The position numbers and the translations under genes were made by a program. Shown piece by piece: positions 2,118 to 59,010 of a stretch of 64,000 bases of DNA. The stretch's first letter is position 1. Every line of letters starts with the position of its first letter. Location of the stretch: the NCBI GenBank assembly GCA_034436295.1, contig DAOTVT010000071.1:1208-65207 (forward strand), read 5' to 3'. Under the pieces are notes generated by a model, which had not been told where the DNA came from, searched no databases, and was given only the letters and a program-made list of their open reading frames with translations. The DNA is from Anaerolineae bacterium. GTDB lineage: Bacteria > Chloroflexota > Anaerolineae > DTLA01.

Positions 2118-5100
2118 CTACCCTTCTATCCTCAGCAACCCCAAGACCAGGGGTTCGCCGTCCAGGTTGTGCTCCTGCAGGTGGGCGCCCTGTGGGGCGT
2201 CGCCCTCTGCCAGTTCGTCGGCCAGCGTCTCCTGCCGGATGTAGTCGCCGAACTCCGCGAACACCGCCTGCAGCCCCGCGCCGCAGCGGTAGAAAACCCG
2301 AATGTGGTCCTCAATGCGGAAGCCGGCGTCCTTGCGCTGCGTCTGGATGCGGCGCACGACTTCTCGCGCCATTCCTTCGCGCACCAGCGCCTCGGTGAGG
2401 GCCGTGCTCACTGCCACCACCAGGCCGTTCTCCTCGGCGACCGAGAAGCCTTCCTTGCTGTGGACGCGCACCTCCACTTCCTCAGGGAGGAGTTCCACCT
2501 CCTCGCCGTCCACCGAGACGCGCACGCTTCTGCCCGCCTGCAATTCGCGGGCCAGGTGGGCCGCAGGCAGCGCCGCGACCGCCGCGCGGAGTTTCGGGAA
2601 CCGCGCACCGTGCTTCTTGCCCAACACGTTGGGAAGCAGGCCGATCTCGTAGCGCACCAGGTCGTCGGCCTGGGCCACGACCTCCATCGCCTTGACGTTC
2701 AGTTCGTCGGTGATGACCGCCGCCATCCGCTCCACGATGGCCCGTGCGTCGTCATCTCTGGGCTTCACGATGACCTTCGCCAGCGGCTGGCGCACCTTGA
2801 GGTTCGCGGCGTTGCGGGCCGCGTGCCCCAGGCTCACCACCTGCCGCACCAATTGTACATCGGCCACCAGGGTGTTGTCAATTGCGGCGCGGTCGGCGAC
2901 GGGGAAGTCGCACAGGTGCACGCTCAACGGCGCGTTGGGGTCCACGCTCCGCACCAGGTTCTGGTACATCTCCTCGGACAGGAACGGCGTGAAGGGGGCC
3001 ATCAACTTGGCCAGGGTTACCAGGCACTCGTAGAGCGTGAGGTAGGCCGCGACCTTGTCCGTGTCCTCGCCGCTCTTCCAGAATCGGCGGCGGCTACGGC
3101 GGACGTACCAGTTGCTCAGCCCGTCCACGAATGCCTCAATGGCGCGGGTGGCGCCCGTTACGTCGTATGCGTTCAGGGACGCATCCACTCGCTCCACGAG
3201 CAGGTTCAACTCGGCCAGCACCCAGCGGTCCAGTTCCGACCGCTTGTCCAGCGGCATGGTGTGCTCCATCGGGTTGAAGCGGTCAATGCGTGCGTAGGTT
3301 ACGAAGAACGAGTAGGTGTTCCACACCGTGAGCAGGAAGCGGCGCAGGGTCTCGCGCACCAGTTCATTGCCGAAGCGGCGCGGATACCAGGGGGCCGCCA
3401 CCGAGTAGGTGTACCAGCGCAGCGCGTCGGCCCCTTGCTCGTTGAGGATGGGCCACGGGTCCACCACGTTGCCCACGTGCTTGCTCATCTTGGCGCCCTT
3501 CTCGTCGGTGCCGAACTCGGTAACCAGGCAGTTCTTGAACGCCGGGCTGTTGAACAACATGGTGGCCACGGCGTGGAGCGTGTAGAACCAGCCGCGGGTC
3601 TGGTCAATGGCCTCGCAAATGAAGTCGGCCGGGAACTGCTCCTTGAAGATATCCTGGTTCTCAAACGGGTAGTGCCATTGGGCGACGGGCATGGAGCCGG
3701 AGTCAAACCAGGCGTCGGCGACCTCGGGGATGCGGCGCATTTGCCCGCCGCACTCGGGGCACTTGAGGACGACGGCGTCCACGAACGGGCGGTGCGGGTC
3801 CAGGTCCGACAGGTCGCGCCCGGCCATCTGCCCCAACTCGGCCAGACTGCCGACGCAGATGCGGTGGCCGCAGTCCTGGCATTCCCAGATGGGCAGGGGC
3901 GTGCCCCAATAGCGCTCGCGGCCCAGCGCCCAGTCCACATTGGTCTCCAGCCAGTTGCCGAAGCGCCCGTGCTTGATGTGCTCGGGGTACCAGTTGATCT
4001 GCTCGTTGGTCGCCAGCATCTGGTCGCGGACCTTGGTGGTCTCAATGTACCAGGTGGTCTTGGCGTAGTAGAGCAGGGGCTGGTGGCAGCGCCAGCAGAA
4101 GGGATACGAGTGCTCGTACTTGGCCGCGCGGTACAGCAGGCCGCGGGTCTTCAGGTCGTCGGTGATGAGCGGGTCGGCGTCCTTGACGAACATGCCGCGC
4201 CAGGGCGTTACCTCGTTCACGAAGCGCCCGCGCAGGTCCACCGTCATGAGCACGGGCAGGTTGTACTCCTTGCCCACGTCCAGGTCGTCGGCCCCGAAGG
4301 CCGGCGCGATGTGGACGATGCCTGTGCCCTCCTCGGTGTTCACGAAGTCCGCGCCCACCACGTAGGCGTAGTCCTTGTCCACGGGCAGGAAGGTGTAGAG
4401 GGGGCGGTAGTGCTTGCCGATGAGTTCCTTCGCCTTCACCGAACGCAGGACCTGATACTCGCCGCGCAGGGCGTATTCCAGCAGCGCCTTGGCGAGGATG
4501 AGTTTGTCGTCGCCCTGCTGCACCAGGACGTACTCCACATGCGGGTGCACCGCCAACGCCACGTTCCCAGGGAGCGTCCACGGCGTCGTCGTCCACACCA
4601 GGAAATACGTCCCCGGCTCATCGCGCAGGGGGAACTTGACGAATACCGACGGGTCCTGCACGTCGCGGTAGCCCTGGGAGACCTCGTGGCTGGAGAGGGA
4701 CGTGCCGCAGCGAGCGCAGTAGGGCACGACCTTGTACCCCTGGTAGATGAGCCCCTTGTCCCAGAGTTGCTTGAGAATCCACCAGAGCGATTCCACATAC
4801 TCGGTCTTGTAGGTGATGTAGGCGTTCTCCAGGTCAATCCAGAACGCGATGCGCTCCGTCAGTTGCTCCCACTCTTTCACGTAGCGCCACACGCTCTCGC
4901 GGCACTTCTCGTTGAACGCCTCCACGCCATAGGCTTCAATCTCGGCCTTGCTGTTGATCCTGAGTTCCTTCTCCACTTCCAGTTCAACGGGAAGGCCCTG
5001 GGTGTCCCATCCGCCCTTGCGCAGGACGTAGTATCCCTTCATGGTGCGGTAGCGCGGGAAGAGGTCCTTGAGGACGCGCGGCAGGACGTGCCCGGCGTGC

Positions 5101-5261
5101 GGACGGCCGTTGGCCGTGGGCGGGCCTTCGTAGAAGACCCAACGCGGGGCGTCCTTGCGCAGTTCCAGGCTCTTGGCGAAGACGTTGTGCGCCCGCCAGA
5201 ACTCCAAGATGCCCTCTTCCATCTTCGGGAAGTTGACCTGTGGCGAAACCTCACGAAACAT
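2118..5261 (-). CDS. ileS: isoleucine--tRNA ligase
   Basis: 1047 aa with class I aaRS signatures (PPTANGRPHAGH, GWDTQGLPVE, KMSKHVGN) and typical IleS architecture and length. ATG at 5261 is preceded by a GGAGGGG RBS. Confidence 0.95.
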   Translation of the reverse strand: MFREVSPQVNFPKMEEGILEFWRAHNVFAKSLELRKDAPRWVFYEGPPTANGRPHAGHVLPRVLKDLFPRYRTMKGYYVLRKGGWDTQGLPVELEVEKELRINSKAEIEAYGVEAFNEKCRESVWRYVKEWEQLTERIAFWIDLENAYITYKTEYVESLWWILKQLWDKGLIYQGYKVVPYCARCGTSLSSHEVSQGYRDVQDPSVFVKFPLRDEPGTYFLVWTTTPWTLPGNVALAVHPHVEYVLVQQGDDKLILAKALLEYALRGEYQVLRSVKAKELIGKHYRPLYTFLPVDKDYAYVVGADFVNTEEGTGIVHIAPAFGADDLDVGKEYNLPVLMTVDLRGRFVNEVTPWRGMFVKDADPLITDDLKTRGLLYRAAKYEHSYPFCWRCHQPLLYYAKTTWYIETTKVRDQMLATNEQINWYPEHIKHGRFGNWLETNVDWALGRERYWGTPLPIWECQDCGHRICVGSLAELGQMAGRDLSDLDPHRPFVDAVVLKCPECGGQMRRIPEVADAWFDSGSMPVAQWHYPFENQDIFKEQFPADFICEAIDQTRGWFYTLHAVATMLFNSPAFKNCLVTEFGTDEKGAKMSKHVGNVVDPWPILNEQGADALRWYTYSVAAPWYPRRFGNELVRETLRRFLLTVWNTYSFFVTYARIDRFNPMEHTMPLDKRSELDRWVLAELNLLVERVDASLNAYDVTGATRAIEAFVDGLSNWYVRRSRRRFWKSGEDTDKVAAYLTLYECLVTLAKLMAPFTPFLSEEMYQNLVRSVDPNAPLSVHLCDFPVADRAAIDNTLVADVQLVRQVVSLGHAARNAANLKVRQPLAKVIVKPRDDDARAIVERMAAVITDELNVKAMEVVAQADDLVRYEIGLLPNVLGKKHGARFPKLRAAVAALPAAHLARELQAGRSVRVSVDGEEVELLPEEVEVRVHSKEGFSVAEENGLVVAVSTALTEALVREGMAREVVRRIQTQRKDAGFRIEDHIRVFYRCGAGLQAVFAEFGDYIRQETLADELAEGDAPQGAHLQEHNLDGEPLVLGLLRIEG

Positions 5262-5662
5262 GCGACCCCTCCGAGAAAGCCTTTAGCCGTTGGCCGATAG
5301 CCTCTAGCGAGCAGCGGTCAGCGGTCGGCGGACACGGGATTGCCTCGGCGTGCCGACGGCAGACCGCAGTATGCGAACCGCTGCAACAAAAAACTCCCGC
5401 CCCATAGGGACGAGAGCGATCTCCCGCGGTACCACCCTGCTTGACAGGCGAGCCTGTCCACTCTGTGGGTACGTGTTCATACCCCCGCCGCTGTAACGGG
5501 CGCGCCCCGGCCAAGTCTACTGGGAGTTGCCTCCGTTCGGTTGGCGGCTCCGGAAGGATTTTCGTCGGGGTTCGCGCATCCGGCTCCCACCGGCCCCGGA
5601 CTCGCTGGGCGTCTCCGCCCGACTACTCGTTTCCATCACAGCCTTTGGTTGGCGTATTCGGT
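5262..5662 (-). promoter_or_regulatory. T-box riboswitch leader of ileS
   Basis: On the minus-strand transcript: stem-III hairpin GACAGGCUCGCCUGUC followed by the canonical T-box sequence AAGCAGGGUGGUACCGCGGGAG (plus-strand reverse complement at about 5422..5443). This is followed by a 10-bp hairpin (CUCUCGUCCC/GGGGCGGGAG) and a U6 tract ending about 30 nt before the ileS ATG. A candidate Ile specifier (AUC) lies within GAAAAUCC; specifier assignment is tentative. Confidence 0.7.
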
Positions 5663-8852: not shown

Positions 8853-9293
8853 TCAGGGCGTCTCGGGGATGATCTGAATCTGCGTGGCGGTCATCGTGTC
8901 GCCCTGGGTCTGGCCGCCGATGATGATGCGGTCGCCCACCTTGAGGTCCGAGAGACTGCCCCGGGTGGTCATCGTGATGCGGGTGTCGGCGGTAACCTGC
9001 ACCTTGAGTTCCTGCTGGGCGGTGCTCACGACGAGGGTGTTGCCGTTGATGGCCTTGATGGTGCCGGTTGCGCCGCGCCCGGGGACGCCGGTGCGACCGG
9101 CCCCGCCCTGGAACATGGCGCCGGGCGTGCCCTGGGCGGCCGGCCCCGTCGCGCCGAACCGCTCGGCGATGAACCGCTCGCGGACGCTGGCCGCCTGGGC
9201 TTTGCCCTGCTCCACGCCGAAGAGGTAGCCGCCCACGCCCGCGCCCACGATCAAGACCACGGCCAATACGATCCACAGGATGTTCTTCTTCAT
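8853..9293 (-). CDS. hypothetical membrane-anchored secreted protein
   Basis: N-terminal signal-anchor (MKKNILWIVLAVVLIVGAGVGGYLF), Gly/Ala-rich linker and a beta-rich C-terminal domain; no confident family assignment. Confidence 0.5.
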   Translation of the reverse strand: MKKNILWIVLAVVLIVGAGVGGYLFGVEQGKAQAASVRERFIAERFGATGPAAQGTPGAMFQGGAGRTGVPGRGATGTIKAINGNTLVVSTAQQELKVQVTADTRITMTTRGSLSDLKVGDRIIIGGQTQGDTMTATQIQIIPETP

Positions 9294-9299
9294 GTGTCC

Positions 9300-9420
9300 T
9301 CCTCGCGCTCCAGCGGTCAGCGGTCAGCGATCAGCAGTCAGTCCCGATCGCTGCCCGCTGCCCGCTGATTGCTGTTCGCTGTTTGCTGATTGCTGATCGC
9401 TGTTTGCTGACTGCTCGCCA
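9300..9420. repeat. inverted array of heptanucleotide repeats (long imperfect hairpin)
   Basis: GGTCAGC/GATCAGC heptamers on the left arm and their complements CTGATTG/CTGATCG/CTGACTG on the right arm. Same family as 51285..51470 and 56826..56975. Confidence 0.7.
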
Positions 9421-9424
9421 TCGG

Positions 9425-10669
9425 CTACTCGTACCTCAACGCCTCAATGGGGTTCAACTCGGCGGCGCGCTGGGCCGGGAAAATCCCGAAGAACAGCCCC
9501 ACCGCCACCGAGAAGAGCGTCGCCAGGAGCACCGAGTCCAGGCCCACGACGGCGCTAATCTGCGTGTTGCCCAGGTTGATGCCCGTGATGAACCGCGAGA
9601 TGCCGTACCCGACGAGGATGCCACCCACGCCGCCAGCCACGCTCAACAGGGTGGCCTCGGTCAGGAACTGCGCCAGGATGTCGCGCTTGCGGGCGCCGAC
9701 GGCCTTGCGGATGCCGATCTCGCGGGTGCGTTCGGTAACGGAGACCAGCATGATGTTCATGATGCCGATGCCGCCGACCAGCAGCGAGATGGCCGCGATG
9801 CCGCCCAGGAACACCGTCAGGATGCCCGTGATCTGGTTCGCGGCCTCAATGGTATCCTTCTGGCTCGTGATGGTGAAATCATCCTGGTAGAGGATGTTGT
9901 GGCGCTCGCGCAGGATGGCGCTGATCTCCTCAACCGCCTGGTCGGTTACCTTCTCGCTGACCACCTGCACGTTGATGGTCTGGATGGTGTTGCCGCCACG
10001 GAACCGCCCGCTGGACGCCAAACGGCTTTGCAGCGTCGTGAGGGGCACCAGGATTCGGTCGTCCACCACGCCGAAGCCGGTGCCGCCTTTGGCTTTCAGG
10101 ACGCCGATGACGCGAAAGTTCTGCCCGTTGATGCGAATGGTCTTATCCAGCGGGTCTTCGCCGTTGAACAGTTCGGCGGCGACGTTGGCGCCGATGACGG
10201 CAACCGGGCTGCGCGCGGCGACATGCTGCGCCGTGATGAAGGAGCCGCTCTCCACCGGCATGTTGCGCACCTGCTCGTACTCGGGCGTAACGCCTGTAAT
10301 CTGGGTGTTGATGTTGTTAGACAGGTACACCACCTGGCCGAAGGCCGACGCCTCGGGCGCAACGGCGGCCACCGAGGGGGCGCGCACGGGGTCGGCCAGG
10401 GCCAGCGCGTCCTCGTAGGTCAGCGTCGCCGCCGATCCCTGCGCCATGCGGACGCCCCCCTGGCTGGCGGCGCCGGGGCGCACGAAGAGCAGGTTGGTGC
10501 CCATGCTGGTAATCTGGCTGGTGATGGCTGCCTGGGCGCCGCGCCCAATGGAGAGCATGGCGATGACGGCGGCCACGCCGATGATGATGCCCAGCATGGT
10601 CAGGAACGACCGCAGTTTGTTGGCCGACAGGCTGGTGATGGCCGTGCGGAGACTCTCTTGCACGTTCAT
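9425..10669 (-). CDS. ABC transporter permease, MacB/FtsX family
   Basis: MacB-type permease with N-terminal TM, large periplasmic domain and C-terminal FtsX 3-TM bundle. Start placed at MNVQESL, preceded by AGGAGGAAG. Confidence 0.85.
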   Translation of the reverse strand: MNVQESLRTAITSLSANKLRSFLTMLGIIIGVAAVIAMLSIGRGAQAAITSQITSMGTNLLFVRPGAASQGGVRMAQGSAATLTYEDALALADPVRAPSVAAVAPEASAFGQVVYLSNNINTQITGVTPEYEQVRNMPVESGSFITAQHVAARSPVAVIGANVAAELFNGEDPLDKTIRINGQNFRVIGVLKAKGGTGFGVVDDRILVPLTTLQSRLASSGRFRGGNTIQTINVQVVSEKVTDQAVEEISAILRERHNILYQDDFTITSQKDTIEAANQITGILTVFLGGIAAISLLVGGIGIMNIMLVSVTERTREIGIRKAVGARKRDILAQFLTEATLLSVAGGVGGILVGYGISRFITGINLGNTQISAVVGLDSVLLATLFSVAVGLFFGIFPAQRAAELNPIEALRYE

Positions 10670-10700
10670 GCGGCTTCCTCCTGTGTGCCGTCGCTGTGTA
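10661..10700. repeat. 32-bp direct repeat, copy 1 (at permease start/RBS)
   Basis: CGTTCATGCGGCTTCCTCCTGTGTGCCGTCGC is identical to 13654..13685. Confidence 0.8.
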
Positions 10701-10761
10701 CCAGCGGGGCGCTGTGCGACTTCAAGTGGCAAGGGTTCATCTGAAACTCCTCGTCATGGGA

Positions 10762-17331: not shown

Positions 17332-17334
17332 GGG

Positions 17335-31175: not shown

Positions 31176-31528
31176 GAATTCTCACACAAAGACACAAAGA
31201 CACGGGGAAAAACCTTTGTGTCTTGGTGCCTTTGTGAGGGGTTTTCATTCTCACACAAAGACACAAAGACACGGAGGAAAGAACTTTGTGTCTCCGTGTC
31301 TTTGTGTGCGGATTGATTCTCACACAAAGACACAAAGACACGGAGAAAAACCTTTGTGTCTCCGTGTCTTTGTGTGCGGATTGATTCTCACACAAAGACA
31401 CGAAGACACGGAGGAAAAAACTCTGTGTCTCCGTGTCTTTGTGTGCGGTTTCATTCTCACACAAAGACACAAAGACACGGAGAGAATTCTTTGTGTCTTG
31501 GTGTCTCTGTGTGCGGATTGATTCTCAC
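31176..31528. repeat. tandem array (~5 units) of ~68-bp hairpin repeats
   Basis: Unit GATTCTCACACAAAGACACAAAGACACGGAG-AAAAACC-TTTGTGTCTCCGTGTCTTTGTGTGCGGATT. Each unit is a ~25-bp near-perfect palindrome. Confidence 0.9.
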
Positions 31529-31535
31529 AGGCTGT

Positions 31536-31931: not shown

Positions 31932-32205
31932 TTTCTCACACAGAGGCACAAAGGCACAGGGGAAAACCCTTTGTGTCTTGGTGTCTTTGTGTGCGGATTG
32001 ATTCTCACACGAAGACACAAAGACACAGAGAAAATTCTTTGTGTCTTGGTGTCTTTGTGTGCGGATTGATTCTCACACAGAGGCACAAAGGCACAGGGAA
32101 AACCCCTTTGTGTCTTGGTGTCTTTGTGTGCGGATTGATTCTCACACCAAGACACAAAGACACGGAGAAAATTCTTTGTGTCTCCGTGTCTTTGTGTGGC
32201 CTCCC
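31932..32205. repeat. second tandem array (~4 units) of the same ~68-bp hairpin repeat
   Basis: Same unit family as 31176..31528 with minor variants (CACAGAGGCACAAAGGCACAGGG). Confidence 0.9.
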
Positions 32206-33574: not shown

Positions 33575-34627
33575 GTGTCCAAAGATGACATTTTGGCGCA
33601 GAGGCGGCCGGTAACCATCAAAGATGTGGCGCGCCTCGCGGGGGTTTCCCCCAAGACCGTGTCCAACGTGGTGAACAATCGCCCCGTGGTGAAGCCCGCA
33701 ACCCGCCAGCGGGTGCTGGATGCGATTCGCGCGCTGGACTACCATCCGAGCGCCCTGGCGCGGGGGATGGTAACCCGTAGCCGTCGCCTCATCGGCCTGG
33801 TGCTGGCCGACATCACCAACCCCGCATATCCCGAAATGGTGGAAGGGGTGGCGAGTCTGGCGCGCCAGGCCGGCTTCATGGTCATGCTGTGCAACACGGG
33901 GCGCGATCCGGATGAGGAGCAGCGCTACGTGCACCTGCTCATTGAGCAGCGGGTGGATGGGGTGATAATCGCCAGCAGCCGCATGGACAGCCAGGCCGCC
34001 GAGATGCTGACATCGGCGGGCATCAAGGTGGTGCTGTTCAACCGCCACCCGCAGCAATACTCGGTGAGTTTCGTGGGCGTGGACAACGAGGGCGGCGGCT
34101 ATCTGGCGACGCGGCATCTGCTGGACCTGGGCCATCGGCGGATTGCCTTCATTCGCGGGACGCGCGGGGCGTCCACGAGCATTGAGCGGGAGCAGGGCTA
34201 TCGTCGGGCGCTGGCCGAGTACGGGATTGAGCCGGATCCGGAACTCATCGGCTGGGGCGACTATCACCCCGAGGTGGCCCGGACCGCCGCCGACCTGCTG
34301 CTGCGGATGAAGAATCGGCCGACGGCGGTGTTTGCGGCCAACGACGTGATGGCGCTGAGCGTGATTGATGCGGCCACGTCGCTGGGCCTTCGCGTGCCCG
34401 AGGACCTGGCCGTGATGGGGTTTGACGACATTGCCATCGCGTCGCACCGGCTCATCGGCCTGTCCACCATCCACGGCGACCTGGGCCAGTTGTCGCGCGA
34501 GGCGACGACGCTGCTGCTGGAGGCCATCAACGGCAACCTGACCGAGCCGGTGCGCAAAATCCTGCCAGTGTATCTGGTGGTGCGGCGGACCTGCGGGGCG
34601 CAGAGGCTAACCGCTATCCACGAATAA
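33575..34627 (+). CDS. LacI-family transcriptional regulator
   Basis: N-terminal HTH (VTIKDVARLAGVSPKTVSNVVN) plus periplasmic-binding-protein-like sugar-binding core. Start placed at GTG after a GGGAGGAG RBS. Confidence 0.85.
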   Translation: MSKDDILAQRRPVTIKDVARLAGVSPKTVSNVVNNRPVVKPATRQRVLDAIRALDYHPSALARGMVTRSRRLIGLVLADITNPAYPEMVEGVASLARQAGFMVMLCNTGRDPDEEQRYVHLLIEQRVDGVIIASSRMDSQAAEMLTSAGIKVVLFNRHPQQYSVSFVGVDNEGGGYLATRHLLDLGHRRIAFIRGTRGASTSIEREQGYRRALAEYGIEPDPELIGWGDYHPEVARTAADLLLRMKNRPTAVFAANDVMALSVIDAATSLGLRVPEDLAVMGFDDIAIASHRLIGLSTIHGDLGQLSREATTLLLEAINGNLTEPVRKILPVYLVVRRTCGAQRLTAIHE

Positions 34628-34690
34628 CACGAATCCACACGAATGGGGAATAGTAGTAGGGCGGCTTTCCATAGCCGCCGACGGCAAGAG
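34605..34690. repeat. dispersed repeat units (families D and C, inverted orientation)
   Basis: GCTAACCGCTATCCACGAATAACACGAATCCACACGAATGG and GGGCGGCTTTCCATAGCCGCC. Confidence 0.7.
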
Positions 34691-41659: not shown

Positions 41660-42065
41660 CCCGCCGCGTATGGATTCGGTTCCGCCTCGTGTTGGCGTGC
41701 CCCCTGGCTTCGGCGGCTACGGAAAGCCGCCCCACGTGTCTACTGTAACCGCGAATCCACGCGAATCCACGCGAATGGAGAACAGCCCCTATCCTCCATT
41801 CGTGTGAATTCGTGTTATTCGTGGATAGCGTTTAGCGAGCGTGGGGCGGGTTCCCATACGTGCCCCCTTCGTCCGGCGGCTATGGAGAGCCGCCCTACGT
41901 GTCTACTGTAACCGCGAATCCACGCGAATCCACGCGAATGGAGAACAGCCCCTATTCGTGTGAATTCGTGTTATTCGTGGATAGCGTTTAGCGAGCGTGG
42001 GGCGGGTTCCCATACGTGCCCCCTTCGTCCGGCGGCTACGGAAAGCCGCCCTACGTGTTTGGGTC
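41660..42065. repeat. tandemly duplicated composite repeat (families E, C, D; two ~185-bp copies)
   Basis: CCCCCTGGCTTCGGCGGCTACGGAAAGCCGCCCCACGTGTCTACTGTAACCGCGAATCCACGCGAATCCACGCGAATGGAGAACAGCCCCTAT...ATTCGTGTTATTCGTGGATAGCGTTTAGCGAGCGTGGGGCGGGTTCCCATACGTGCC is repeated twice. Confidence 0.85.
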
Positions 42066-45514: not shown

Positions 45515-45870
45515 GAGGGCTGGCAGTAGGGCGGCTCTCCGTAGCCGCCGAAACCGGGGGCACGCCCAGGTGCGACGCACTTCCCAAAGTGCGTCGCACC
45601 TGGGCGCCAACACAAGACGGAGCCGAATCCTGCCGCCCCGTATGCTTTTGACAGCCGCCATAGCCGGGTGGCAGGTACGGAAACCTGCCCTACACTCGCT
45701 AACCGCTATCCACGAATAACACGAATCCACACGAATGGAGAATAGACCCCCAACGGTCTCCGAGGCCCGTTGTCCGCAGACACGTAGGGCGGCTCTCCGT
45801 AGCCGCCGGACGAAGGGGGCAGGTATGGAAACCTGCCCTACACTCTGCTGCCGGACTTGCGCCAATTTCC
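45515..45870. repeat. composite dispersed-repeat cluster (families C, B, E, D, C)
   Basis: GGGCGGCTCTCCGTAGCCGCC; palindrome CCAGGTGCGACGCACTTCCCAAAGTGCGTCGCACCTGG; ACACAAGACGGAGCCGAATCC; CGCTAACCGCTATCCACGAATAACACGAATCCACACGAATGG. Confidence 0.85.
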
Positions 45871-46965: not shown

Positions 46966-48491
46966 GACGCGGCTCCGGCGGCCTATCCTCACCCCGTGGC
47001 GCGCGCGCGGCGGAGATGCTGGTCTTCGCGGCTCCGCTGGCCGTGTATGTGGCCACGCTGCCGGCGGGATTGACGTGGGCGCACGAGGGCGCCGACGGCG
47101 GAGACCTGGTCGCCGCGGCCCGCACGCTGGGCATTCCCCATCCGCCTGGGTATCCGCTGTACACGCTCCTGGCGCGGCTGTTCCTGCTGATGGGCTGGAG
47201 CACGCCTGCGCACCGCGTGGCGCTCCTGTCGGCGGTGGCGGGCGCGGGGGCGGCCTGGGCGCTGTTCCGGTTGTGCCTGGCGCTGGTCGGCCGGTCGCGT
47301 TGGCCGCTGGCCCTGTCGGCCTCGCTGATGTGGGCCTTCGCGCCCATTCCGTGGGGCCAGGCGGTGATCGCCGAGGTGTACGCCCTGGGTGCGCTGTTGG
47401 CCGTGGCGTTTCTGGCCGCGTTGCTCCATTGGCGCAACACGGCGAGCAGGAGAGCATGGCGGGCCGCGTGGCTGCTGTTCGGGTTGGGCATGGCCCACCA
47501 TCCGCTCATCGCCGCATGCCTGGTTCCCGCGGGCGTGTGGGCGTGGCAGCAACGCCGCCGCGCCGACAGGCGAAGTTGGGGCGAGGCGGTCGGGCTGGTG
47601 GCGCTGGGCCTGGCCTTCTACATCTACCTCCCGCTGCGGGCGGCGGCGTCTCCGCCCATCAACTGGGGCGAGCCGCGCACCCTGGCGGGGTTCTGGTGGG
47701 TGGTGTCGGCCGCGCCGTATCGGCCGTATGTGTTCGGCCTGCCGCTCGGGGAGTGGCCGTCCCGCCTGGGCGCGTGGGCCGCGCTCCTGCTGGGCCAGTT
47801 CAAGGTGTGGGGCGTCGCGCTGGGGCTTTGGGGGGCGCTGGCCCTTCACGAGCGGGACAGGGCCGCGTCGTGGGGGCTGCTGGGTCTGTTCGGCCTCATC
47901 ACGGTGTACGCCATCGGGTACGATACGACGGACTCCTTTGTGTATCTGCTGCCGGCGCTGGCCGTGTTTGCCGCCTGGATCGCGACGGGCCTGGGGGACA
48001 TCGCGGATCGCGTCGCGGCGCGAAGGGCGGGGCTGACCCGCGCGGCGCAGGTGGGCCTCGTGGTCGCGCTGGTGGCGCTGCCTGCGCTCTCCCTCGGCAT
48101 GGACTGGGCGGCGTGCGACCTGCGCGGCGACCGCGAAGCCCAGGCGTATGTGGATGCGTCGCTGGCGGCGCTGCCCGCAGACGCCCTCGTCCTGGCCGAC
48201 GGCGACCGCCAGACCTTCGCCCTGTGGTACGCCCGCTGGGCGCTGGATGGCGCATTCCACGGCGAGGTTCTGTCCATCCCGCTGTTGCGGTTGGACTGGT
48301 ACCGGGCGCAGGTGCTGCGTCGCAACCCCCATCTGGTTCTGCCCGACGCGAACCTGCCCCAGGAAGCGTTCCTGGCCCAACTCATCGGCGGGAACGTGGA
48401 TGACCGCCCGATTTTCGTTACCGCGGAGTACCTTGCGCCTGGGGGCTGGAAGGTGGAGCCTGCCGGGCCTCTGTTGAGGGTGAGCCGATGA
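46963..48491 (+). CDS. DUF2723-family membrane protein (TMEM260-like putative glycosyltransferase)
   Basis: Multi-TM protein with the characteristic GIPHPPGYPLY motif; ATGA overlap with the upstream GT2. Confidence 0.75.
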
Positions 48492-50356
48492 ACGTTGACG
48501 CCACGCCGCGCCGTTTCTATCGCGCGCCGCTGTTCTGGATCGTCGCGGCCCTGCTGGCGGGGCTGCTGGTTGCCTTTGGGCCGCGGGTCGCGCGCCTGCC
48601 GGGACTGATTCGCCAGGCGCGGGCCGAGGCGGCCTACTGGAGCGCCGTGCGTAGCGGCGGGCTTCGGGCGTTGAGCCGTGCCGGCGCTGCCGACGAACTG
48701 GGGGCGCATCTGGACGCCGCCCGCCGCCTGGTGGCCTCGGCGCGCCGCGATTGGGGGTTCGCCGTGGAGGCGGCGGCGTGGTTCGGCTGGGTTCCCGGCA
48801 TCGGGGGCGACCTGGCGGCGCTGCCCCACCTGGCGAACGCGGCCCAGAACGCGCTGGACGGCGGCGCGCTCCTGTACGGTGAGGTGAAGCTGGCGGTGGC
48901 GGCGCTGCCCGATGGCGCGGGGGCGATGCTGGCCGCGCTGGCGACGCGCACGCCGGGCGACCCGCAGGCCCTGCGGCAGGCGGAAGAGGCGCTGCGGCGG
49001 GCGTCGGAGGCGTGGGGCAGGGTGGACACGCGCCGCTTGTCGCCCAGGCTGGCGCGGTTCGTCCCGCTGGTGAATCGGGCGCTCCCCGTTTTGGCCGCCG
49101 CGCCCGACCTGCTGCGGGCGGCGCCGGAATTGCTGGGGGCCGACGGCCCGCGCCGGTATCTCATCCTGGCGCAGAATAGCGATGAAATCCGCGCCACGGG
49201 TGGGTTCATCAGCGGCGTGGGCATCGTGGAGGTCAATCGCGGCGAGATCACGTCCGTTACCTTCGCCGACAGTTACTCGGTGATGGATTTGACCAAGCCG
49301 CATCCCATCCCGCCCGTCGCGCTGGAGACCCACATGTGGGCGCAGATTCTCCTGCTGCGCGACGCCAACTGGTGGGCCGACTTCCCCACGTCGGCGCGCA
49401 AGGCCTGGGAACTGTACGAGCAGGACACCGGCAAGAAGGTGCACGGGGTTGTCGCCATAGACACGCCCGCGCTGCAACTGCTGGTCGCGGCGGCAGACCC
49501 CATCCGCCTGGAAGAGTACAACGACACCATCACCGCCGACAACCTGCTGGAGCGCATCCAGCACTACTGGGCGTCGCCGGTGGGCGGGCCTGACATCGCC
49601 AGCAACGACCCGCAATGGTGGAAACTCCGCAAGAACTTCATGGGCGTCCTGGCGAAGTCGGTCATAGAGCGCCTGATGAAGCACACGGGCGACTTGGACA
49701 TGGCGGAAGTGGCGCAGACGACGCTGCGCCTGTTGAACGAGCGCCACCTGCTGCTGTTCCTGCCGCCTGTGCAGGACGCGCTCCATCGGCAGAAGTGGGA
49801 TGGCGCCATCGTGCCGGCGCAGGGCGATTACCTGTTCGTGGTGGACAGCAACGTGGGGTTCAACAAGGTGAACCCCATGATCCGCCAGAGCATCACGTAC
49901 ACGGTCAACCTGGCCGACGCCACGGCGCTGTTGCAGATCGGCTACGCCCACGGGTCGCAGGCCCGCCTGGACGTGTGCGTGCACGAATCGCGCTACGGGG
50001 ACACATACCAGGACATGATGGATCGCTGCTACTGGGACTATGTGCGGGTGTTCGCGCCGGCGGGGGCCGAGTTGCTGGCCCGCGAGGGGCTGGAGGACGG
50101 CGATCTGGCCGAATCGGAGGCGGGCCTGGCGGTGTGGGACGGGCTGCTGGTGCTGAAGCCGGGCGAGGCGCAGGAAGTTACGTTCCGCTATCGGTTGCCG
50201 GCGTCGGTGGCGCAGAGCGCGTACCGCCTGTACGTGCAGAAGCAGCCGGGGACGTGGGGCATCCCGCTGCGGGTCGTCATCAGGGGTGGGGGCGGCCAGG
50301 TGCGCGAGTTCCAGACCGACCTGGCCGAGGATCGGGAGTTCGTCGTCGGCCCGTAG
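48488..50356 (+). CDS. DUF4012-domain protein
   Basis: N-terminal TM anchor and a large extracytoplasmic domain with the DANWWADFP signature; ATGA overlap with the upstream gene. Confidence 0.7.
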   Translation: MNVDATPRRFYRAPLFWIVAALLAGLLVAFGPRVARLPGLIRQARAEAAYWSAVRSGGLRALSRAGAADELGAHLDAARRLVASARRDWGFAVEAAAWFGWVPGIGGDLAALPHLANAAQNALDGGALLYGEVKLAVAALPDGAGAMLAALATRTPGDPQALRQAEEALRRASEAWGRVDTRRLSPRLARFVPLVNRALPVLAAAPDLLRAAPELLGADGPRRYLILAQNSDEIRATGGFISGVGIVEVNRGEITSVTFADSYSVMDLTKPHPIPPVALETHMWAQILLLRDANWWADFPTSARKAWELYEQDTGKKVHGVVAIDTPALQLLVAAADPIRLEEYNDTITADNLLERIQHYWASPVGGPDIASNDPQWWKLRKNFMGVLAKSVIERLMKHTGDLDMAEVAQTTLRLLNERHLLLFLPPVQDALHRQKWDGAIVPAQGDYLFVVDSNVGFNKVNPMIRQSITYTVNLADATALLQIGYAHGSQARLDVCVHESRYGDTYQDMMDRCYWDYVRVFAPAGAELLAREGLEDGDLAESEAGLAVWDGLLVLKPGEAQEVTFRYRLPASVAQSAYRLYVQKQPGTWGIPLRVVIRGGGGQVREFQTDLAEDREFVVGP

Positions 50357-50434
50357 CGGCGGGAAACGGCAAGTCCGTGCGATTGCTTGCGCTGACCCAG
50401 AGGCATATCCCCAAGGGCACAGCACGCTGTACCC

Positions 50435-51268
50435 CTAAGGCACCTCGGTGGGGGTGAAGTTCGTGATGACCAGGGCGCGCTCCAGGCTGCCGAAGTCCAC
50501 CGTCGGCTGCACCTCGGCCTCTTGGTACAGCCCCACCTCGTCGCGGATGACTTTGGACACCTGCCCGATGATGAGCGCCTTGGGGAACATGCCTCCCAGG
50601 CCCGACGTGATGACCACATCGCCCTCGGCCACGCTGCTGTCGTGGGGGATGCGGGTCATGACGAGTTTGCCGCCGGGGCGTCCCTCCACCAGGCCGGTAA
50701 CGCGGTTGCGCTGGATCATGGCGTTCACCGAACTGCGCGCGTCCACGATGAGCAGCACGCGGCACGCGTTGGGGTACACGTCCAGCACGCGGCCCACCAG
50801 CCCGCGCTCGGTTACGACGGGCATGTTGCGGCGGATGCCGTCGCGCGCGCCCACGTTCAGCACCAGGTCGGGGAACAGGTTGGACGCGCCGCTGCCGACG
50901 ACGTAGCCCACCACCTCTGCGCCCTTGAACTGATAGGCCGGATACGTCTGGGTGAAGTTGAGCAGCGCCCGCAGGTGCTCAATCTCCTTGTTAGCCTCTT
51001 CCAACTGGAGCAGTTGCACCGACAGGCGGTCCACCTGGGCGCGCAGGTCGCGGTTCTCCTCGCGCAGCGCCACCATGTCGCGCCCGCCCTGTATCCAGTC
51101 GCTCACGGTGCGGCTCAGGCGGGAGAACTGATCCTGCACCGGCGCGAGCAGCGTCGTCGCCAGGTCGCGCACGGGGCGAAACAGGCCCGTCTGGGAGACC
51201 AGAAAGGCCACGATGAGGACGATGATGGCGACGATAAGGGCAGTGGGTGTGTCCGTCCGCGAATGCAT
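50435..51268 (-). CDS. mreC: rod shape-determining protein MreC
   Basis: N-terminal TM, coiled coil (LREENRDLRAQVDRLSVQLLQLEE) and beta-rich MreC domains. Confidence 0.9.
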   Translation of the reverse strand: MHSRTDTPTALIVAIIVLIVAFLVSQTGLFRPVRDLATTLLAPVQDQFSRLSRTVSDWIQGGRDMVALREENRDLRAQVDRLSVQLLQLEEANKEIEHLRALLNFTQTYPAYQFKGAEVVGYVVGSGASNLFPDLVLNVGARDGIRRNMPVVTERGLVGRVLDVYPNACRVLLIVDARSSVNAMIQRNRVTGLVEGRPGGKLVMTRIPHDSSVAEGDVVITSGLGGMFPKALIIGQVSKVIRDEVGLYQEAEVQPTVDFGSLERALVITNFTPTEVP

Positions 51269-51284: not shown

Positions 51285-51470
51285 GCTAGTAGCCTTTAGC
51301 CTACAGCCTTTAGCCTATAGCCTTTGGCCTTGGTGCGATGGCACTGCCCAACGCCTCCCAACCCAGGCGAATGGCCCGCTGCCAGAGGCTAAAGGCTATA
51401 GGCCAATGGCTAATGGCTACAGGCTAATGGCTAGCGGCTAACGGCTAACGGCCAAACACCAATGGTTTCT
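51285..51470. repeat. inverted arrays of heptanucleotide repeats forming a long hairpin between mreC and mreB
   Basis: Left arm TAGCCTT/TAGCCTA heptamers; right arm GGCTAAA/GGCTATA/GGCTAAT/GGCTAAC heptamers (reverse complements), in total ~20 heptads. Confidence 0.8.
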
Positions 51471-52529
51471 CTACCGCTTTCTTGGCCGGCGGCTATCGGC
51501 CAGGACTTTGCGCAAGGAATCCAGGTTTTCCAGCACCTTGCCGGCCCCCAGCGCCACGCACCACATGGGGTTTTCGGCCACATAGACGCGCATGTGGGTT
51601 TCCTCGCTCAGGCGCGTGGCCATTCCTTGCAGCAGCGCGCCGCCCCCGGCCAGCGCGATGCCGTTCTCCATCAGGTCGGCCACCAACTCGGGCGGGGTGT
51701 CGTCCAGCGCCTCTTTCACGGTGTTGACGATGGTGGCGACGGACCCCGCGAGGGCCTCGCGAATCTCAATGCTGGAGACTTCCACCTCTTCGGGGAGGCC
51801 CGTAACCAGGTTGCGGCCCCGCAGGGTCATGGTCTTCTCTTCGGGCAGCGGGTATGCCGATCCGATGGCGATCTTCACCCGCTCGGCCATGCGCTCGCCG
51901 ATGAGGAGGTTGTACTTCTGGCGCGCGTAGTTGATGATGTCCTCGTCCATCTCGTCGCCGGCGACGCGGATGGAGCGGCTGACCACGACGCCGCCCAGCG
52001 AGAGCACCGCCACCTCGGTGGTGCCGCCGCCGATGTCCACGATCATGCTGCCGACGGACTCGGTGATGGGGAGGCCCGCGCCGATGGCCGCCGCCTTGGG
52101 TTCTTCAATGAGGAACGCCTCGCGCGCGCCCGCGCTCAGGCAGGCGTCGGACACGGCGCGCTTTTCCACCTCGGTAACGCCGCTGGGAATTCCCACGACG
52201 ACGCGCGGCCGCGGCACGCTGAAGACCATCTTCTCGTGGGCCTTGCGGATGAAGTAGTGAAGCATCCGCTCGGTAACGACGAAATCGGAGATGACGCCGT
52301 CGCGCAGGGGGCGAATGGCGATGATGTTGGCGGGCGTGCGCCCGACCATGTCCTTCGCCTCGCTGCCGATGGCCAGCACCTGCTTCGTTCTCTTGTCCAC
52401 AGCCACCCAGGACGGCTCGTTGATGATGATGCCCTTGCCTTTGACGTAAACCAGCGTGTTGGCCGTTCCCAGGTCAATGCCGATGTCCAGGGAGAATAGC
52501 CCCAGGAAGGCGGCGATTGGGTTGAACAT
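51471..52529 (-). CDS. mreB: rod shape-determining protein MreB
   Basis: Actin-fold motifs (IGIDLGTANTLVY, GVVVSRSIRVAGDEMDE, ALAGGGALL); start placed at MFNPIAAFLG. Confidence 0.95.
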   Translation of the reverse strand: MFNPIAAFLGLFSLDIGIDLGTANTLVYVKGKGIIINEPSWVAVDKRTKQVLAIGSEAKDMVGRTPANIIAIRPLRDGVISDFVVTERMLHYFIRKAHEKMVFSVPRPRVVVGIPSGVTEVEKRAVSDACLSAGAREAFLIEEPKAAAIGAGLPITESVGSMIVDIGGGTTEVAVLSLGGVVVSRSIRVAGDEMDEDIINYARQKYNLLIGERMAERVKIAIGSAYPLPEEKTMTLRGRNLVTGLPEEVEVSSIEIREALAGSVATIVNTVKEALDDTPPELVADLMENGIALAGGGALLQGMATRLSEETHMRVYVAENPMWCVALGAGKVLENLDSLRKVLADSRRPRKR

Positions 52530-52710
52530 GGACCTCTCCTCGTGCTTGGTGTGGCTTGGAGCCGCGCCCATTATAGCACAGCGGGTGAAATTGGCAATTT
52601 GCAACGCCGGAGGGCGCGCCTGGACGCGGTGCAAGAGCGGGTTGGCGCTTTTCAGGAATCGTGGTATAGTGCGGTGAGAATGCAGTTCATGGCTAGGGAA
52701 GGAGGCTGCA

Positions 52711-56365: not shown

Positions 56366-56583
56366 CGCGCGTGGTTCCTGTGCTCAGCAGCAGGCAGGTG
56401 GTGAAGGCGTTTGAGCGACTTGGGTCGGCTGACGTAGCGACGGATCCAGGAAGGCAAGCATCATCCGCGCGTCGGGTTCGGAAGGAGGTGGTGCGCGGGA
56501 TTACGCAAACGGCGGGTTCATCGGGGAGAGTAGCGCCTGGACTGGGCGGTGAGGGCCACTTCATGAGCCGCCTGCCCAGTTGA
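56362..56583 (+). pseudogene. probable decayed HicA-family toxin gene
   Basis: First ~20 codons (PVLSSRQVVKAFERLG) match HicA. The continuation lacks the GSH/VPxH motifs, and a GKHH-like fragment appears only in the +1 frame. The 3' end overlaps the glmS ribozyme P1. Confidence 0.35.
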
Positions 56584-56770
56584 CGAGGACGGAGGTTCCT
56601 CACCTCGCGGTGAGGCTAACCGGCACGCGCCGGGAAAATCGGAAGATCGGCGGAAGCCTCCGGGGGCGATCCCGCCCCCACAACTCCCCTCCAAAACGAG
56701 CGCGTCCCCAAATCCGCGCGGGCGACCGCCGGGACAAAGGGCCGCGCAGGGATCGGGCGAGACTCATCGT
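56530..56770 (+). ncRNA. glmS ribozyme (glucosamine-6-phosphate-activated)
   Basis: Cleavage-site sequence UAGCGCC at 56531-56537. P1 is CUGGGCGG...CCGCCUGCCCAG. Core GACGAGGACGGAGGUU and AUCGGCGGAAGCCUCCGGGGGCGA match the conserved GACGAGGAUGGAGGUU and UCGGCGGAUGCCUCCCGG elements. Located upstream of glmS. Confidence 0.6.
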
Positions 56771-56825: not shown

Positions 56826-56975
56826 GGTTAGCGGTCAGCGAGCAGCAGTCAGCCGTCAGCGGTCTGCGATCAGCGAGCGACGGATGCCGCTAACGGCTAA
56901 CGGCTAACGGCTGACCGCTAAAGGCTAGAGGCTAACGGCTGACGGCTAAAGGCCAACGGCCAACGGCTATCATCA
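56826..56975. repeat. inverted arrays of heptanucleotide repeats (long hairpin) between ribozyme and glmS start
   Basis: Left arm GGTCAGC-type heptamers; right arm (GGCTAAC)n with variants GGCTGAC/GGCTAAA/GGCCAAC, ~11 heptads. Confidence 0.8.
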
Positions 56976-56989: not shown

Positions 56990-58825
56990 ATGTGCGGGAT
57001 TGTGGGATACATCGGCCCCCGCGACGCGACGCAAATCATCATGGACGGCCTGCGCCGTCTGGAGTACCGCGGCTACGACTCGGCCGGCATCGCCGTGCTA
57101 CAGGAGGGGCGCCTGGTCGTCCGCCGCGACGCCGGCAAACTGGCCAACCTCGCCGCCATCCTGGAGCGCGAGCCGGTGCACGGCCCCGTCGGCATCGGCC
57201 ACACGCGCTGGGCCACCCACGGCCGGCCCAGCCAGCGCAACGCCCATCCCCACACCGATTGCACGGGCGAGATCGTGGTCATCCACAACGGCATCGTGGA
57301 GAACTTCATGGCGTTGAAGGCGGAACTGCAGGCCGAAGGGCACCGATTCCGCTCGGATACCGACACGGAAGTAATCGTGCATCTTGTGGAGAAGTACTAC
57401 CAGGGCGACATCGCCGAGGCGGCGCGGGCGGCCTTCCAGCGGCTGCGCGGCGCCCACGCCATTGTCGTCATGACGTCGCGCGAACCCGACCGACTTGTGG
57501 CGACGCGCATCGGCAACGCGGGAGGCGTAACGGTGGGCCTGGGCGACGACGAGATGTTCCTGGCCTCGGATATCCCTGCGATTCTGGAGCACACGCGCCG
57601 CATGGTCTTTCTGGAAGACCGCGAGATGGCCGTCGTAACGCGCAGCGGCGCGCAGTACTACCGCCTGACGGGCGAGCCGGTGTCCAAGACGCCCCACACC
57701 GTGCCCTACGATCCGGTGGCGGCGGCCAAGGGCGAGTACAAGCACTTTATGCAGAAGGAAATCTACGAGCAGCCCCGCGCCGTAACCGACACCATTCGCG
57801 GGCGCATGGACTTTGAGACCGGCGAGGCGATCCTGGCGGACGTAGGCATCGGGGAGGACGAGGCGCGCGCCCTGGATCGGGTCGTCATCGTGGCGTGCGG
57901 CACGTCGGCCTACGCGGGCCTGGTGGGCAAGTTCATGCTGGAATCGCTGGCGGGCCTGCCGGTGGAGGTGGACTACGGCTCCGAGTTTCGCTACCGCGAC
58001 CCTCACATCACCCCGCGGACGCTGGTGGTGGCCATCACCCAGTCGGGCGAGACGGTGGACACGCTGGCGGCCATGGACGAGGCGCGGCGCAAGGGGGCCA
58101 GGATCGTGAGCATCGTCAACGCGGTGGGGAGCATGGCAGCGCGCGTGTCCGACGGCGTTATCTACATGCAGGCAGGCCCCGAAATCGGCGTGGCATCCAC
58201 TAAGGCGTTCACCACATCGCTGGTGGATTTGTACCTGCTGGGCACGTACCTGGGGCAGAAGCGCGGGCGGCTGGACAGGGAGCGGTCGCTGGCGCTGGCC
58301 CAGGATTTGGCCGAACTGCCCAATCTGATGGGGAGCGTGCTGGCCAACGGCCACGAGTACGAGGCGCTGGCGCAGTTGTACTACGAGAAGGCCGACTTCC
58401 TGTACCTGGGGCGGGGCATCAACTACCCCATCGCCCTAGAGGGCGCGCTGAAACTCAAGGAAATCTCGTACATCCACGCCGAAGGCTATCCGGCGGGCGA
58501 GATGAAGCATGGTCCCATCGCCCTGATTGACGACCACATGCCGGTCATGATCATCGCCATCCGCGACCGCGTGTACGAGAAGATCATGGGCAACGTGGAG
58601 GAGGTCAAGGCGCGCAACGGGATCGTGCTGGCGCTGGGCACGCAGGGCGACGCGCACCTGGCCGAGAAGGCCGATCATGTGATTTATGTGCCCCCGCTGC
58701 CGGAACTCCTGTCGCCGGTGGTTACGGTCATCCCGCTGCAACTGTTCGCGTACCACATGGCGGTGCGCCGCGGGTGCGATGTGGATCAGCCGCGCAACCT
58801 GGCGAAGAGCGTAACGGTGGAGTGA
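56990..58825 (+). CDS. glmS: glutamine--fructose-6-phosphate aminotransferase (isomerizing)
   Basis: N-terminal MCGIVGY Ntn-amidotransferase start, two SIS domains, 611 aa. Confidence 0.95.
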   Translation: MCGIVGYIGPRDATQIIMDGLRRLEYRGYDSAGIAVLQEGRLVVRRDAGKLANLAAILEREPVHGPVGIGHTRWATHGRPSQRNAHPHTDCTGEIVVIHNGIVENFMALKAELQAEGHRFRSDTDTEVIVHLVEKYYQGDIAEAARAAFQRLRGAHAIVVMTSREPDRLVATRIGNAGGVTVGLGDDEMFLASDIPAILEHTRRMVFLEDREMAVVTRSGAQYYRLTGEPVSKTPHTVPYDPVAAAKGEYKHFMQKEIYEQPRAVTDTIRGRMDFETGEAILADVGIGEDEARALDRVVIVACGTSAYAGLVGKFMLESLAGLPVEVDYGSEFRYRDPHITPRTLVVAITQSGETVDTLAAMDEARRKGARIVSIVNAVGSMAARVSDGVIYMQAGPEIGVASTKAFTTSLVDLYLLGTYLGQKRGRLDRERSLALAQDLAELPNLMGSVLANGHEYEALAQLYYEKADFLYLGRGINYPIALEGALKLKEISYIHAEGYPAGEMKHGPIALIDDHMPVMIIAIRDRVYEKIMGNVEEVKARNGIVLALGTQGDAHLAEKADHVIYVPPLPELLSPVVTVIPLQLFAYHMAVRRGCDVDQPRNLAKSVTVE

Positions 58826-58835: not shown

Positions 58836-59010
58836 GGGTGGGGCCCCTCACCCTGGCCCTCTCCCCGCAAGGCGGGGCGAGGGGATTGCCCCCCTCACCC
58901 TAGCCCTCTCCCCGCGAGCGGGGCGAGGGGATTGCCCCCCTCACCCTAGCCCTCTCCCCGCAAGGTGGGGCGAGGGGATTGCACTACGGTTCTGGCCGCG
59001 AGCGGGGCGA
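58836..59010. repeat. four tandem units of dispersed repeat family A
   Basis: CCCCTCACCCTNGCCCTCTCCCCGCNAGNGGGGCGAGGGGATTGC x4, same family as 5697..5800. Confidence 0.85.

Follow-up and report, generated by a model that had tools for sequence, protein, structure and literature searches.

Inverted arrays of heptanucleotide repeats in intergenic spacers of an Anaerolineae genome

The window analyzed here, a 64,000-nt stretch of DNA from an Anaerolineae bacterium (Chloroflexota), contains four loci with tandem arrays of 7-nt units, three of which consist of two arrays facing each other. These arrays belong to a known kind of repeat, for which both the phylum and the unit family are new. With a rough probability of 0.6, they can be explained as hypermutable STRR-type long heptanucleotide SSRs; on this view, they grew by slippage along both arms of hairpins located in transcribed spacers, are tolerated there, and do not act as terminators.

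Heptanucleotide arrays in the window

An earlier note on this DNA described three inverted heptamer loci, and their existence and location were confirmed by Tandem Repeats Finder, an inverted-repeat search, and comparisons with shuffled sequences. Tandem Repeats Finder placed the period-7 arrays at positions 9311-9341 and 9349-9415, 51290-51331 and 51386-51456, and 56826-56875 and 56889-56969, with period 7 in every arm and additional higher-order periods of 14, 21, and 28 nt. A three-unit GGCTAAN pattern with no more than 2 mismatches had 19 matches in the window versus 0 in 100 shuffles, and a six-unit pattern with GCT every 7 nt had 10 matches versus 0 in shuffles.

In the spacer between the permease and DUF5666 genes, arm A (9311..9338) consists of 4 units (CAGCGGT, CAGCGGT, CAGCGAT, and CAGCAGT) and arm B (9349..9415) of approximately 9.5 units (CGCTGCC, CGCTGCC, CGCTGAT, TGCTGTT, CGCTGTT, TGCTGAT, TGCTGAT, CGCTGTT, and TGCTGAC), which on the + strand can be written as (CAGCGGT)x4, a center of ∼10 nt, and (YGCTGNN)x9.5. 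The mreB-mreC spacer reads (TAGCCTN)x6, a 55-nt center, and (NGGCTAA)x10 on the same strand: the 6 units of arm A (51289..51330; GTAGCCT, TTAGCCT, ACAGCCT, TTAGCCT, ATAGCCT, and TTGGCCT) are complements of the GGCTAAN type, and arm B (51386..51455) comprises the 10 units AGGCTAA, AGGCTAT, AGGCCAA, TGGCTAA, TGGCTAC, AGGCTAA, TGGCTAG, CGGCTAA, CGGCTAA, and CGGCCAA. The center of this hairpin (51331..51385) is non-repeat sequence that is near-constant between strains and partly folded itself. The glmS leader, (GGTCAGC-like)x8, ∼6 nt, and (GGCTAAC-like)x12 on the + strand, has 8 units in arm A (56826..56881; GGTTAGC, GGTCAGC, GAGCAGC, AGTCAGC, CGTCAGC, GGTCTGC, GATCAGC, and GAGCGAC) and 12 in arm B (56888..56971; CGCTAAC, GGCTAAC, GGCTAAC, GGCTGAC, CGCTAAA, GGCTAGA, GGCTAAC, GGCTGAC, GGCTAAA, GGCCAAC, GGCCAAC, and GGCTATC), the last base of which lies 19 nt 5' of the ATG.

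The arms are shorter than had been proposed. They contain 4 to 12 units instead of ∼10 to 20, and the paired parts span 30 to 46 nt (46 nt at 80%, 35 nt at 80%, and 30 nt at 83% complementarity in the inverted-repeat search), not 50 to 70 bp. According to the same search and the unit listing, the facing arrays are 6 to 55 nt apart.

The window has a fourth locus of the same family that the earlier note had missed. Upstream of ileS (5279..5334), 8 units form one direct array without a facing partner, on the + strand GCCTTTA, GCCGTTG, GCCGATA, GCCTCTA, GCGAGCA, GCGGTCA, GCGGTCG, and GCGGACA. In this one array, GGCTAAN and GCTGACC variants adjoin each other and therefore belong to one family; the unit family common to all four loci of the window is NGCTRAN (GGCTAAC, GGCTGAC, and their complements). 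Runs of three or more G residues are absent from every unit at the four loci.

Folding of the three paired spacers, also suggested earlier, put both strands beyond the shuffled controls (z scores from -3.6 to -5.7), except for the sense strand of the glmS locus when wider flanks were included (z score of -1.8). In every allele, the hairpins are stable on either strand, from -55 to -114 kcal/mol. A comparison of sense and antisense folding, made to look for selection on the mRNA, favored neither strand consistently: the window loci fold slightly better in the antisense orientation, and other alleles and relatives (L001 and L256) show the reverse. A search of the array loci against Rfam 15 at a permissive threshold returned only sub-threshold hits, namely generic miRNA-precursor hairpins (27 and 20 bits versus gathering scores of 80 and 70) and the cow-rumen-3 sRNA model (14 bits versus 86.7), none of them near any gathering score.

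Taken together, the loci are heptanucleotide long SSRs, or STRR-like repeats in the broad sense: their tandem 7-nt units exceed chance, are non-coding, vary between strains by whole units, and share a unit family at several loci, four in 64 kb. The STRR-like label used in the earlier note is thus a fair one for tandem 7-nt intergenic units that form one family at several loci and differ in number among strains.

Gene context and probable read-through

All four array loci are non-coding and lie between genes and leaders supported by Pfam or Rfam matches. On the minus strand, a strong predicted sigma-70-like promoter (52570..52597; TTGCCA-16-TATAAT, 11/12, with TG) is followed by mreB (51471..52529; 352 aa; Pfam MreB_Mbl, 1.3e-143), which has the same gene model in L001 to L009, and, beyond the paired arrays, by mreC (50435..51268; 277 aa; Pfam MreC, 2.3e-44). 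On the plus strand, the glmS ribozyme (56521..56757; Rfam RF00234, 42.3 bits versus a gathering score of 37) and the start of glmS (56990..58825; 611 aa; Pfam SIS and GATase domains) enclose another pair, as the earlier note had recognized. It had likewise correctly placed a pair by the end of an ABC permease operon, between a MacB/FtsX permease gene (9425..10732, minus strand; Pfam) and the DUF5666 gene located 3' of it (8853..9293, minus strand; Pfam). The single array separates a T-box leader (5403..5648, minus strand; Rfam RF00230, 105 bits) from ileS, which encodes a class I tRNA synthetase (2118..5261, minus strand; 1,047 aa; Pfam). At 4 of 4 loci, the array stops 17 to 20 nt short of the next start codon, which puts its end at the border of the ribosome-binding region.

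Transcription has to pass through the arrays of glmS and ileS, which sit between the ribozyme or T-box and the start codon under its control. Scans of the regions around the three inverted loci found no terminator-like site, that is, a stem followed by a run of T residues; nor were there any promoter-like sites in the three spacers, and none was found that would serve mreC alone. The lack of a T-run, together with the presence of a riboswitch-type leader upstream at two loci, indicates that the arrays are read through and are not terminators. The suggestion of the earlier note that they could be intrinsic terminators or attenuators is therefore extremely unlikely to be correct: such a role would fit long G+C-containing intergenic stem-loops, and at the mreB-mreC site of one relative, L254, a plain hairpin precedes TTTCC, but the scans, the position of the glmS and ileS arrays past the ribozyme or T-box terminator yet ahead of the start codon, and the absence of a promoter-like site dedicated to mreC all speak against it.

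Variation among strains of one species

The exact MreC sequence of the window is encoded on at least 10 further metagenome contigs from ENA, JGI, and Logan, which provide a strain set for this species. In ten independent assemblies, the flanks are 97 to 99.9% identical to the window. The mreB-mreC spacers in this set measure 188, 195, 202, and 209 nt, which are one-unit steps, and 208 nt. The 202-nt spacer, identical to that of the window, is present in four contigs. The 208-nt allele, found in three contigs, is one base off the 7-nt series; its 5' arm is down to 5 units and its 3' arm is up to 11, versus 10 and 6 in the window. The spacers of the glmS leader are 189, 175, and 140 nt long, differing by steps of 2 and 5 units. 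At the permease-DUF5666 locus, the allele is identical in the single other contig that covers positions 9311-9415.

The arms gain and lose units independently, and the center of the hairpin hardly changes. All strain alleles still fold as long hairpins, and at the mreB-mreC and glmS loci the shorter arm has at least 5 units in every one of them. The arrays are thus genuine variable-number tandem repeats, with each arm changing separately.

Short-read assemblers may collapse or expand tandem repeats, and several of the arrays in other genomes are located at contig ends. However, the window's own alleles of 202 and 189 nt were recovered exactly in 3 to 4 independent assemblies from ENA, JGI, and Logan, variant alleles are common to several samples, and ten independent assemblies reproduce the arrays. 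Since the same alleles appear in independent assemblies, the arrays are not assembly artefacts of low-complexity sequence, an explanation raised in the earlier note whose probability can be considered negligible.

The mreB-mreC site in relatives

Comparison of this site in related genomes suggests a stepwise history. In the Anaerolineae genome L257 (46% MreC identity), the genes are adjacent, with a spacer of 3 nt, and in L255 (78%) the 24-nt spacer holds only a mini-palindrome, GGCC-GTT-GGCC. The 84-nt spacer of L254 (72%) has a plain 10-bp hairpin before the TTTCC, without heptamers. Paired arrays are present in L256 (90%; 106 nt), where (GTCAGCG)7 and (ATGCTGA)4 arrays, of the GTCAGCG/GCTGAAT type, abut each other; in L252 (81%; 119 nt), with GCCATTA and GGCTAAA arrays; and in L251 (92%; 140 nt), with GGTCGGC and GCTGACC arrays.

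As the earlier note had assumed, mreB and mreC are normally adjacent, which the short spacers of two relatives support. The 3- and 24-nt spacers also show that the mreBC operon works without a hairpin. One lineage has gained a hairpin at this site, which has lengthened by heptamer units; the sequence of the unit turns over, and the architecture is kept.

Gene order downstream of mreC differs among these genomes. In the window species, the next gene after mreC is a convergent DUF4012 gene, with mreD and the PBP2 gene not adjacent (48488-51268). In L254 and L257, mreD comes directly after mreC, with PBP2 next in L257; in L252, mreD and PBP2 are found ∼2.7 kb downstream, past two opposite-strand genes.

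Arrays in other genomes and arm polarity

A scan of one genome per species with the pattern GGCTAACGGCTAACGGCYRA yielded at least 120 loci; the source genome was not among the matches listed. Among those matches, (GGCTAAC)n arrays come from Gemmatimonadota, Acidobacteriota, Chloroflexota, Planctomycetota, Armatimonadota, Bacteroidota, Myxococcota, Pseudomonadota, and other phyla, and many of the matches listed show the facing-array architecture in intergenic DNA. In 821 kb of flanking DNA, limited to flanks more than 400 nt from the seeded match, there were 104 arrays of period 7 versus 20, 19, 12, and 11 arrays of periods 5, 6, 8, and 9, respectively. Only ∼17 of the 104 have GGCTAAC-like units, and the heptamers are very diverse, so the property that these arrays have in common is the 7-nt period and not the GGCTAAC unit.

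The two arms show a strong polarity. Among the matches listed, which cover many phyla, (GTTAGCC)n is the 5' arm in 19 of 22 facing pairs and the 3' arm in 3, with 0 to 1 in controls; it is also the 5' arm in all three pairs of the window and in L252 and L256. Because a 5'-X...rc(X)-3' pair reads the same on both strands, this polarity is a feature of the duplex. Among 19 pairs from other heptamer families, G-C skew was higher in the 5' arm than in the 3' arm in 18, and A-T skew in 16. In GGCTAAC-like pairs, by contrast, the 5' arm is T-richer (22 versus 6) and G-C skew is neutral, and one compositional rule for arm polarity does not fit both groups. For single (GGCTAAC)n arrays in other genomes, orientation relative to start codons was 8 versus 5, based on crude GC3-based gene calls. 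Viral contigs gave 0 matches to either pair polarity (two units per side, gap of 0 to 30 nt), and the matches listed for the loose GCT-every-7 pattern in viral contigs were mostly unrelated repeats.

The loops and flanks of GGCTAAC hairpins in L131 to L250 (e.g., L143, L187, L135, and L141) often contain other heptamer arrays, with units such as GGGGACT, GGGGCCA, CAGGTGA, GGGGTGT, and TGTTCAA in other phyla, and sometimes one hairpin is nested in another. In the Anaerolineae relative L257, (GATGCAA)n and (CTTGCCT)n arrays abut each other at 7050-7134.

Other repeats in the window

Several additional repeat families were found in the window. A gene of the GxxExxY family (31536-31919, minus strand; TIGR04256, 2.4e-41) is flanked by 5 (31178-31529) and 4 (31933-32198) tandem hairpin units of 68 to 69 nt, the arms of which are tandem 8-mers, ACACAAAG and CTTTGTGT. 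Hairpins made of short tandem units are, accordingly, not restricted to period 7 in this DNA. A dispersed composite repeat (5840-6013, 34600-34690, 41692-42061, and 45526-45849) combines a GGCGGCT-loop-AGCCGCC hairpin, a GGGCAGG-loop-CCTGCCC hairpin, and a short 10-mer array, CGCGAATCCA and ATTCGTGTGA. A 46-nt unit with an internal hairpin, CCCCTCACCCTAGCCCTCTCCCCGCAAGGCGGGGCGAGGGGATTGCC, occurs three times downstream of glmS (58844-58982) and twice upstream of the T-box (5710-5800). Two related perfect palindromes of 20+20 nt, CCAAGGTGCAACGCACTTCC|GGAAGTGCGTTGCACCTTGG and its variant, are located at 5808-5847 and 45563-45606, and each of them adjoins a copy of the composite repeat.

In the strain contig L002, segment 14931-15253 is joined to 15217-18805 in such a way that the sequence beside window position 45526 runs on as the window sequence from 5969 upwards. 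This junction points to an inversion of 39.5 kb with oppositely oriented copies of the composite repeat at its two ends. It is the sole large strain rearrangement seen, and its breakpoints have no heptamer arrays. The proposal that the heptamer loci are recombination hotspots thus holds for the gain and loss of units but not for large rearrangements, as the L002 breakpoints fall in another repeat family.

Comparison with known repeats

Intercistronic palindromes of enterobacteria, the REP or BIME elements, were reportedly described by Newbury et al. in 1987. REPs are transcribed intercistronic hairpins without a T-run that can shield the upstream mRNA from 3' exonucleases; they are dispersed copies of a conserved palindrome of ∼35 nt that are mobilized by RAYT transposases. 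The hairpins of the window resemble them in being intercistronic, free of T-runs, and probably transcribed, but differ in having arms that are tandem arrays and vary locus by locus.

The classical cyanobacterial repeats STRR1 to STRR3, as defined by Mazel et al. in 1990, are said to have the units CCCCAGT, TTGGTCA, and CAACAGT. The arrays described here are not STRRs in that strict sense: their units are GGCTAAC and GGCTGAC, and the closest named proteins come from MAGs labeled "Chloroflexi bacterium" and "Anaerolineae bacterium." What they do have in common with cyanobacterial STRRs are tandem 7-nt units at many intergenic or intercistronic loci with the capacity to form hairpins; the differences are the host, a member of Chloroflexota and not a heterocyst-forming cyanobacterium, and the NGCTRAN unit. 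In filamentous cyanobacteria, it is common ("not unusual") for the hupS-hupL spacer to contain hairpin-forming 7-bp STRRs, which have been proposed to stabilize the transcript or to couple translation (PMC2670836). STRRs reportedly also occur in the RNase P RNA gene (Vioque 1997).

A close parallel to the paired arrangement is provided by Xanthomonas, in which each genome carries 70 to 75 convergent pairs of GGGAATC arrays, most of them transcribed, that keep their position and vary in length between species (Rehm et al. 2015, PMC4692102). In both cases, two arrays lie close together on opposite strands and their position is kept while their length has changed in relatives (here, at the mreB-mreC site of L251, L252, and L256), but the Xanthomonas units contain G-tracts and form G-quadruplexes, and those of the window have no G-tract. 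Given these 70 to 75 facing pairs per genome (PMC4692102) and the "not unusual" STRR hairpins between hupS and hupL (PMC2670836), the inverted organization cannot be called unusual, as it had been in the earlier note.

Individual features of the arrays have other precedents. In the 5' untranslated region of Haemophilus influenzae hmw1A, an (ATCTTTC)n array forms a hairpin that is cut by RNase III (Rapun-Araiz et al. 2025, PMC12721329), and a change in unit number requires both RNase III and transcription (PMC12721329). As in the window, a heptamer SSR of variable unit number in a transcribed 5' leader makes up an arm of a long hairpin; however, the second arm in hmw1A is non-repeat and G-rich, the gene encodes a phase-variable adhesin, and the mechanism was shown experimentally, whereas in the window each arm is an array and housekeeping genes are involved. 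Among the long SSRs of prokaryotes, with units of 5 to 11 nt, heptanucleotides were the most abundant, were located outside coding regions, and were attributed to polymerase slippage (Mrazek et al. 2007, as summarized in PMC4679880 and PMC4692102). The same excess of period 7 was seen in the flanks scanned here; in those summaries, however, arrays are treated singly and no paired, polar arrangement is mentioned. Direct TAACTGA repeats 5' of start codons are known from marine Beggiatoaceae, cyanobacteria, and Bacteroidetes (MacGregor 2015, PMC4679880). Like the arrays of the window, they are found a few nucleotides 5' of the start codons of unrelated, often essential genes and have a patchy spread across phyla, but nearly all of them are direct, in 2 to 6 copies (169 direct sets and one indirect), whereas 3 of the 4 loci here are inverted pairs. 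A literature search for (GGCTAAC)2-type strings of units and for Chloroflexi heptamer repeats yielded no specific report.

Origin of the arrays

Unit number is likely to change through strand slippage during DNA synthesis. Heptamers appear to be the unit length most prone to slippage in many bacteria, hairpin formation may add to this, and the periods of 14, 21, and 28 nt mark multi-unit steps. The arrays are expected to be transcribed as parts of the mreBC, ribozyme-glmS, T-box-ileS, and permease-DUF5666 RNAs and to fold in them as long imperfect stem-loops that end 17 to 20 nt before the next start codon. By folding on itself, an insert of any length could keep the ribosome-binding site close to the stop codon, ribozyme, or T-box that precedes it. 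In our view, the inverted arrangement may be favored because a slippage-prone spacer does the least harm when it grows as a self-folding insert. The effects of the arrays, if any, may involve mRNA processing or stability or translational coupling, as has been proposed for the STRR hairpins of cyanobacteria, and unit number would provide small strain-to-strain tuning at most. Of the options offered in the earlier note, RNA stability elements are a plausible one. The functional importance of the arrays is probably small.

Certain observations do not fit this scheme easily. The 208-nt allele cannot be reached from the others in whole units, which is a point against pure unit slippage. Plain slippage predicts no arm polarity, and slippage alone does not account for the facing-pair arrangement or for the strong polarity of the arms; fold-back copying and selection on the first-transcribed arm are possible causes of the latter. 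The persistence of a hairpin at the mreB-mreC site, from 72% to 100% MreC identity, could instead mean a selected function.

Alternative explanations

Such a function is the essence of the main rival to the slippage model. The hairpins might be selected RNA elements, affecting stability, RNase III processing, or translational coupling, in which an RNase III site or a barrier to 3' exonucleases uncouples the amounts of MreB and MreC and sets the stability of the glmS and ileS mRNAs, with unit number as the tuning knob. Besides the retention of the hairpin at the mreB-mreC site through replacement of its sequence and unit family, this proposal draws on the shorter arm never falling below 5 units in any allele, on the 17- to 20-nt spacing to the start codon that the four loci have in common, on the RNase III-cut (ATCTTTC)n hairpin that sets hmw1A expression (PMC12721329), and on the suggested stabilizing or coupling role of STRR hairpins (PMC2670836). 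It has to contend with relatives in which the mreB-mreC gap is just 3 or 24 nt and the operon functions hairpin-free, with arms that are merely 80 to 83% complementary and change independently, with the absence of a consistently better-folding RNA strand that would indicate selection on the sense RNA, and with the housekeeping nature of the genes concerned. In its full form, the proposal is rather unlikely, and a modest role is possible.

Arm polarity bears on further proposals. It is doubtful, but conceivable, that 5'-(GTTAGCC)n-loop-(GGCTAAC)n-3' constitutes a cross-phylum polarity-constrained element instead of a result of passive slippage, owing either to directional making, e.g., fold-back copying by a nascent strand fresh from one kind of array, or to a conserved factor acting on the first-transcribed arm. 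More generally, the arrays could be binding sites for a heptamer-recognizing DNA or RNA factor or the product of a dedicated mechanism such as fold-back copying. This would explain why unit and arm polarity are shared across phyla, with (GGCTAAC)n present in Gemmatimonadota, Acidobacteriota, Chloroflexota, and others among the matches listed and with the 19-to-3 bias among those matches, which the three window pairs follow; a heptamer-binding regulator has been proposed for the TAACTGA repeats as well (MacGregor 2015, PMC4679880). The explanation is nevertheless quite unlikely: heptamers are very diverse in the genomes that carry these arrays, any unit would look widespread in a set of 185,579 genomes, single arrays have no clear orientation to start codons, no candidate protein was identified, and unit families replace one another at one site. 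Inverted arms of fixed polarity are also what a transposable hairpin element would have, and other dispersed hairpin repeats are abundant in the window, so that MITE- or REP-like mobile elements with heptamer arrays as terminal inverted repeats were considered. This origin is very unlikely, as the centers of the three window loci (55, ∼10, and ∼6 nt) are unrelated and the copies have no common internal sequence or fixed ends, the arms vary in length from locus to locus, target-site duplications are not evident, the ileS array has no facing partner, and growth at one site was gradual across relatives. Slippage-grown, tolerated arrays in transcribed spacers remain the preferred explanation.

Implications

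These data extend heptanucleotide repeat hairpins from cyanobacteria and Xanthomonas to Chloroflexota of the thermophilic (hot-spring) type and show them in a glmS ribozyme leader, a T-box leader, and an mreBC operon. Metagenomes give a population-level view of their unit-by-unit change, and relatives supply a stepwise series at one site, from a 3-nt spacer to a 200-nt hairpin. In genome annotation, such arrays should not be named terminators; they also explain contig breaks. A polarity-constrained element, if it is real, would also explain why the 5' arm is nearly always purine- and G-rich in other heptamer families, and the polarity, should it hold genome-wide, would point to a directional mechanism behind very common but neglected bacterial repeats.
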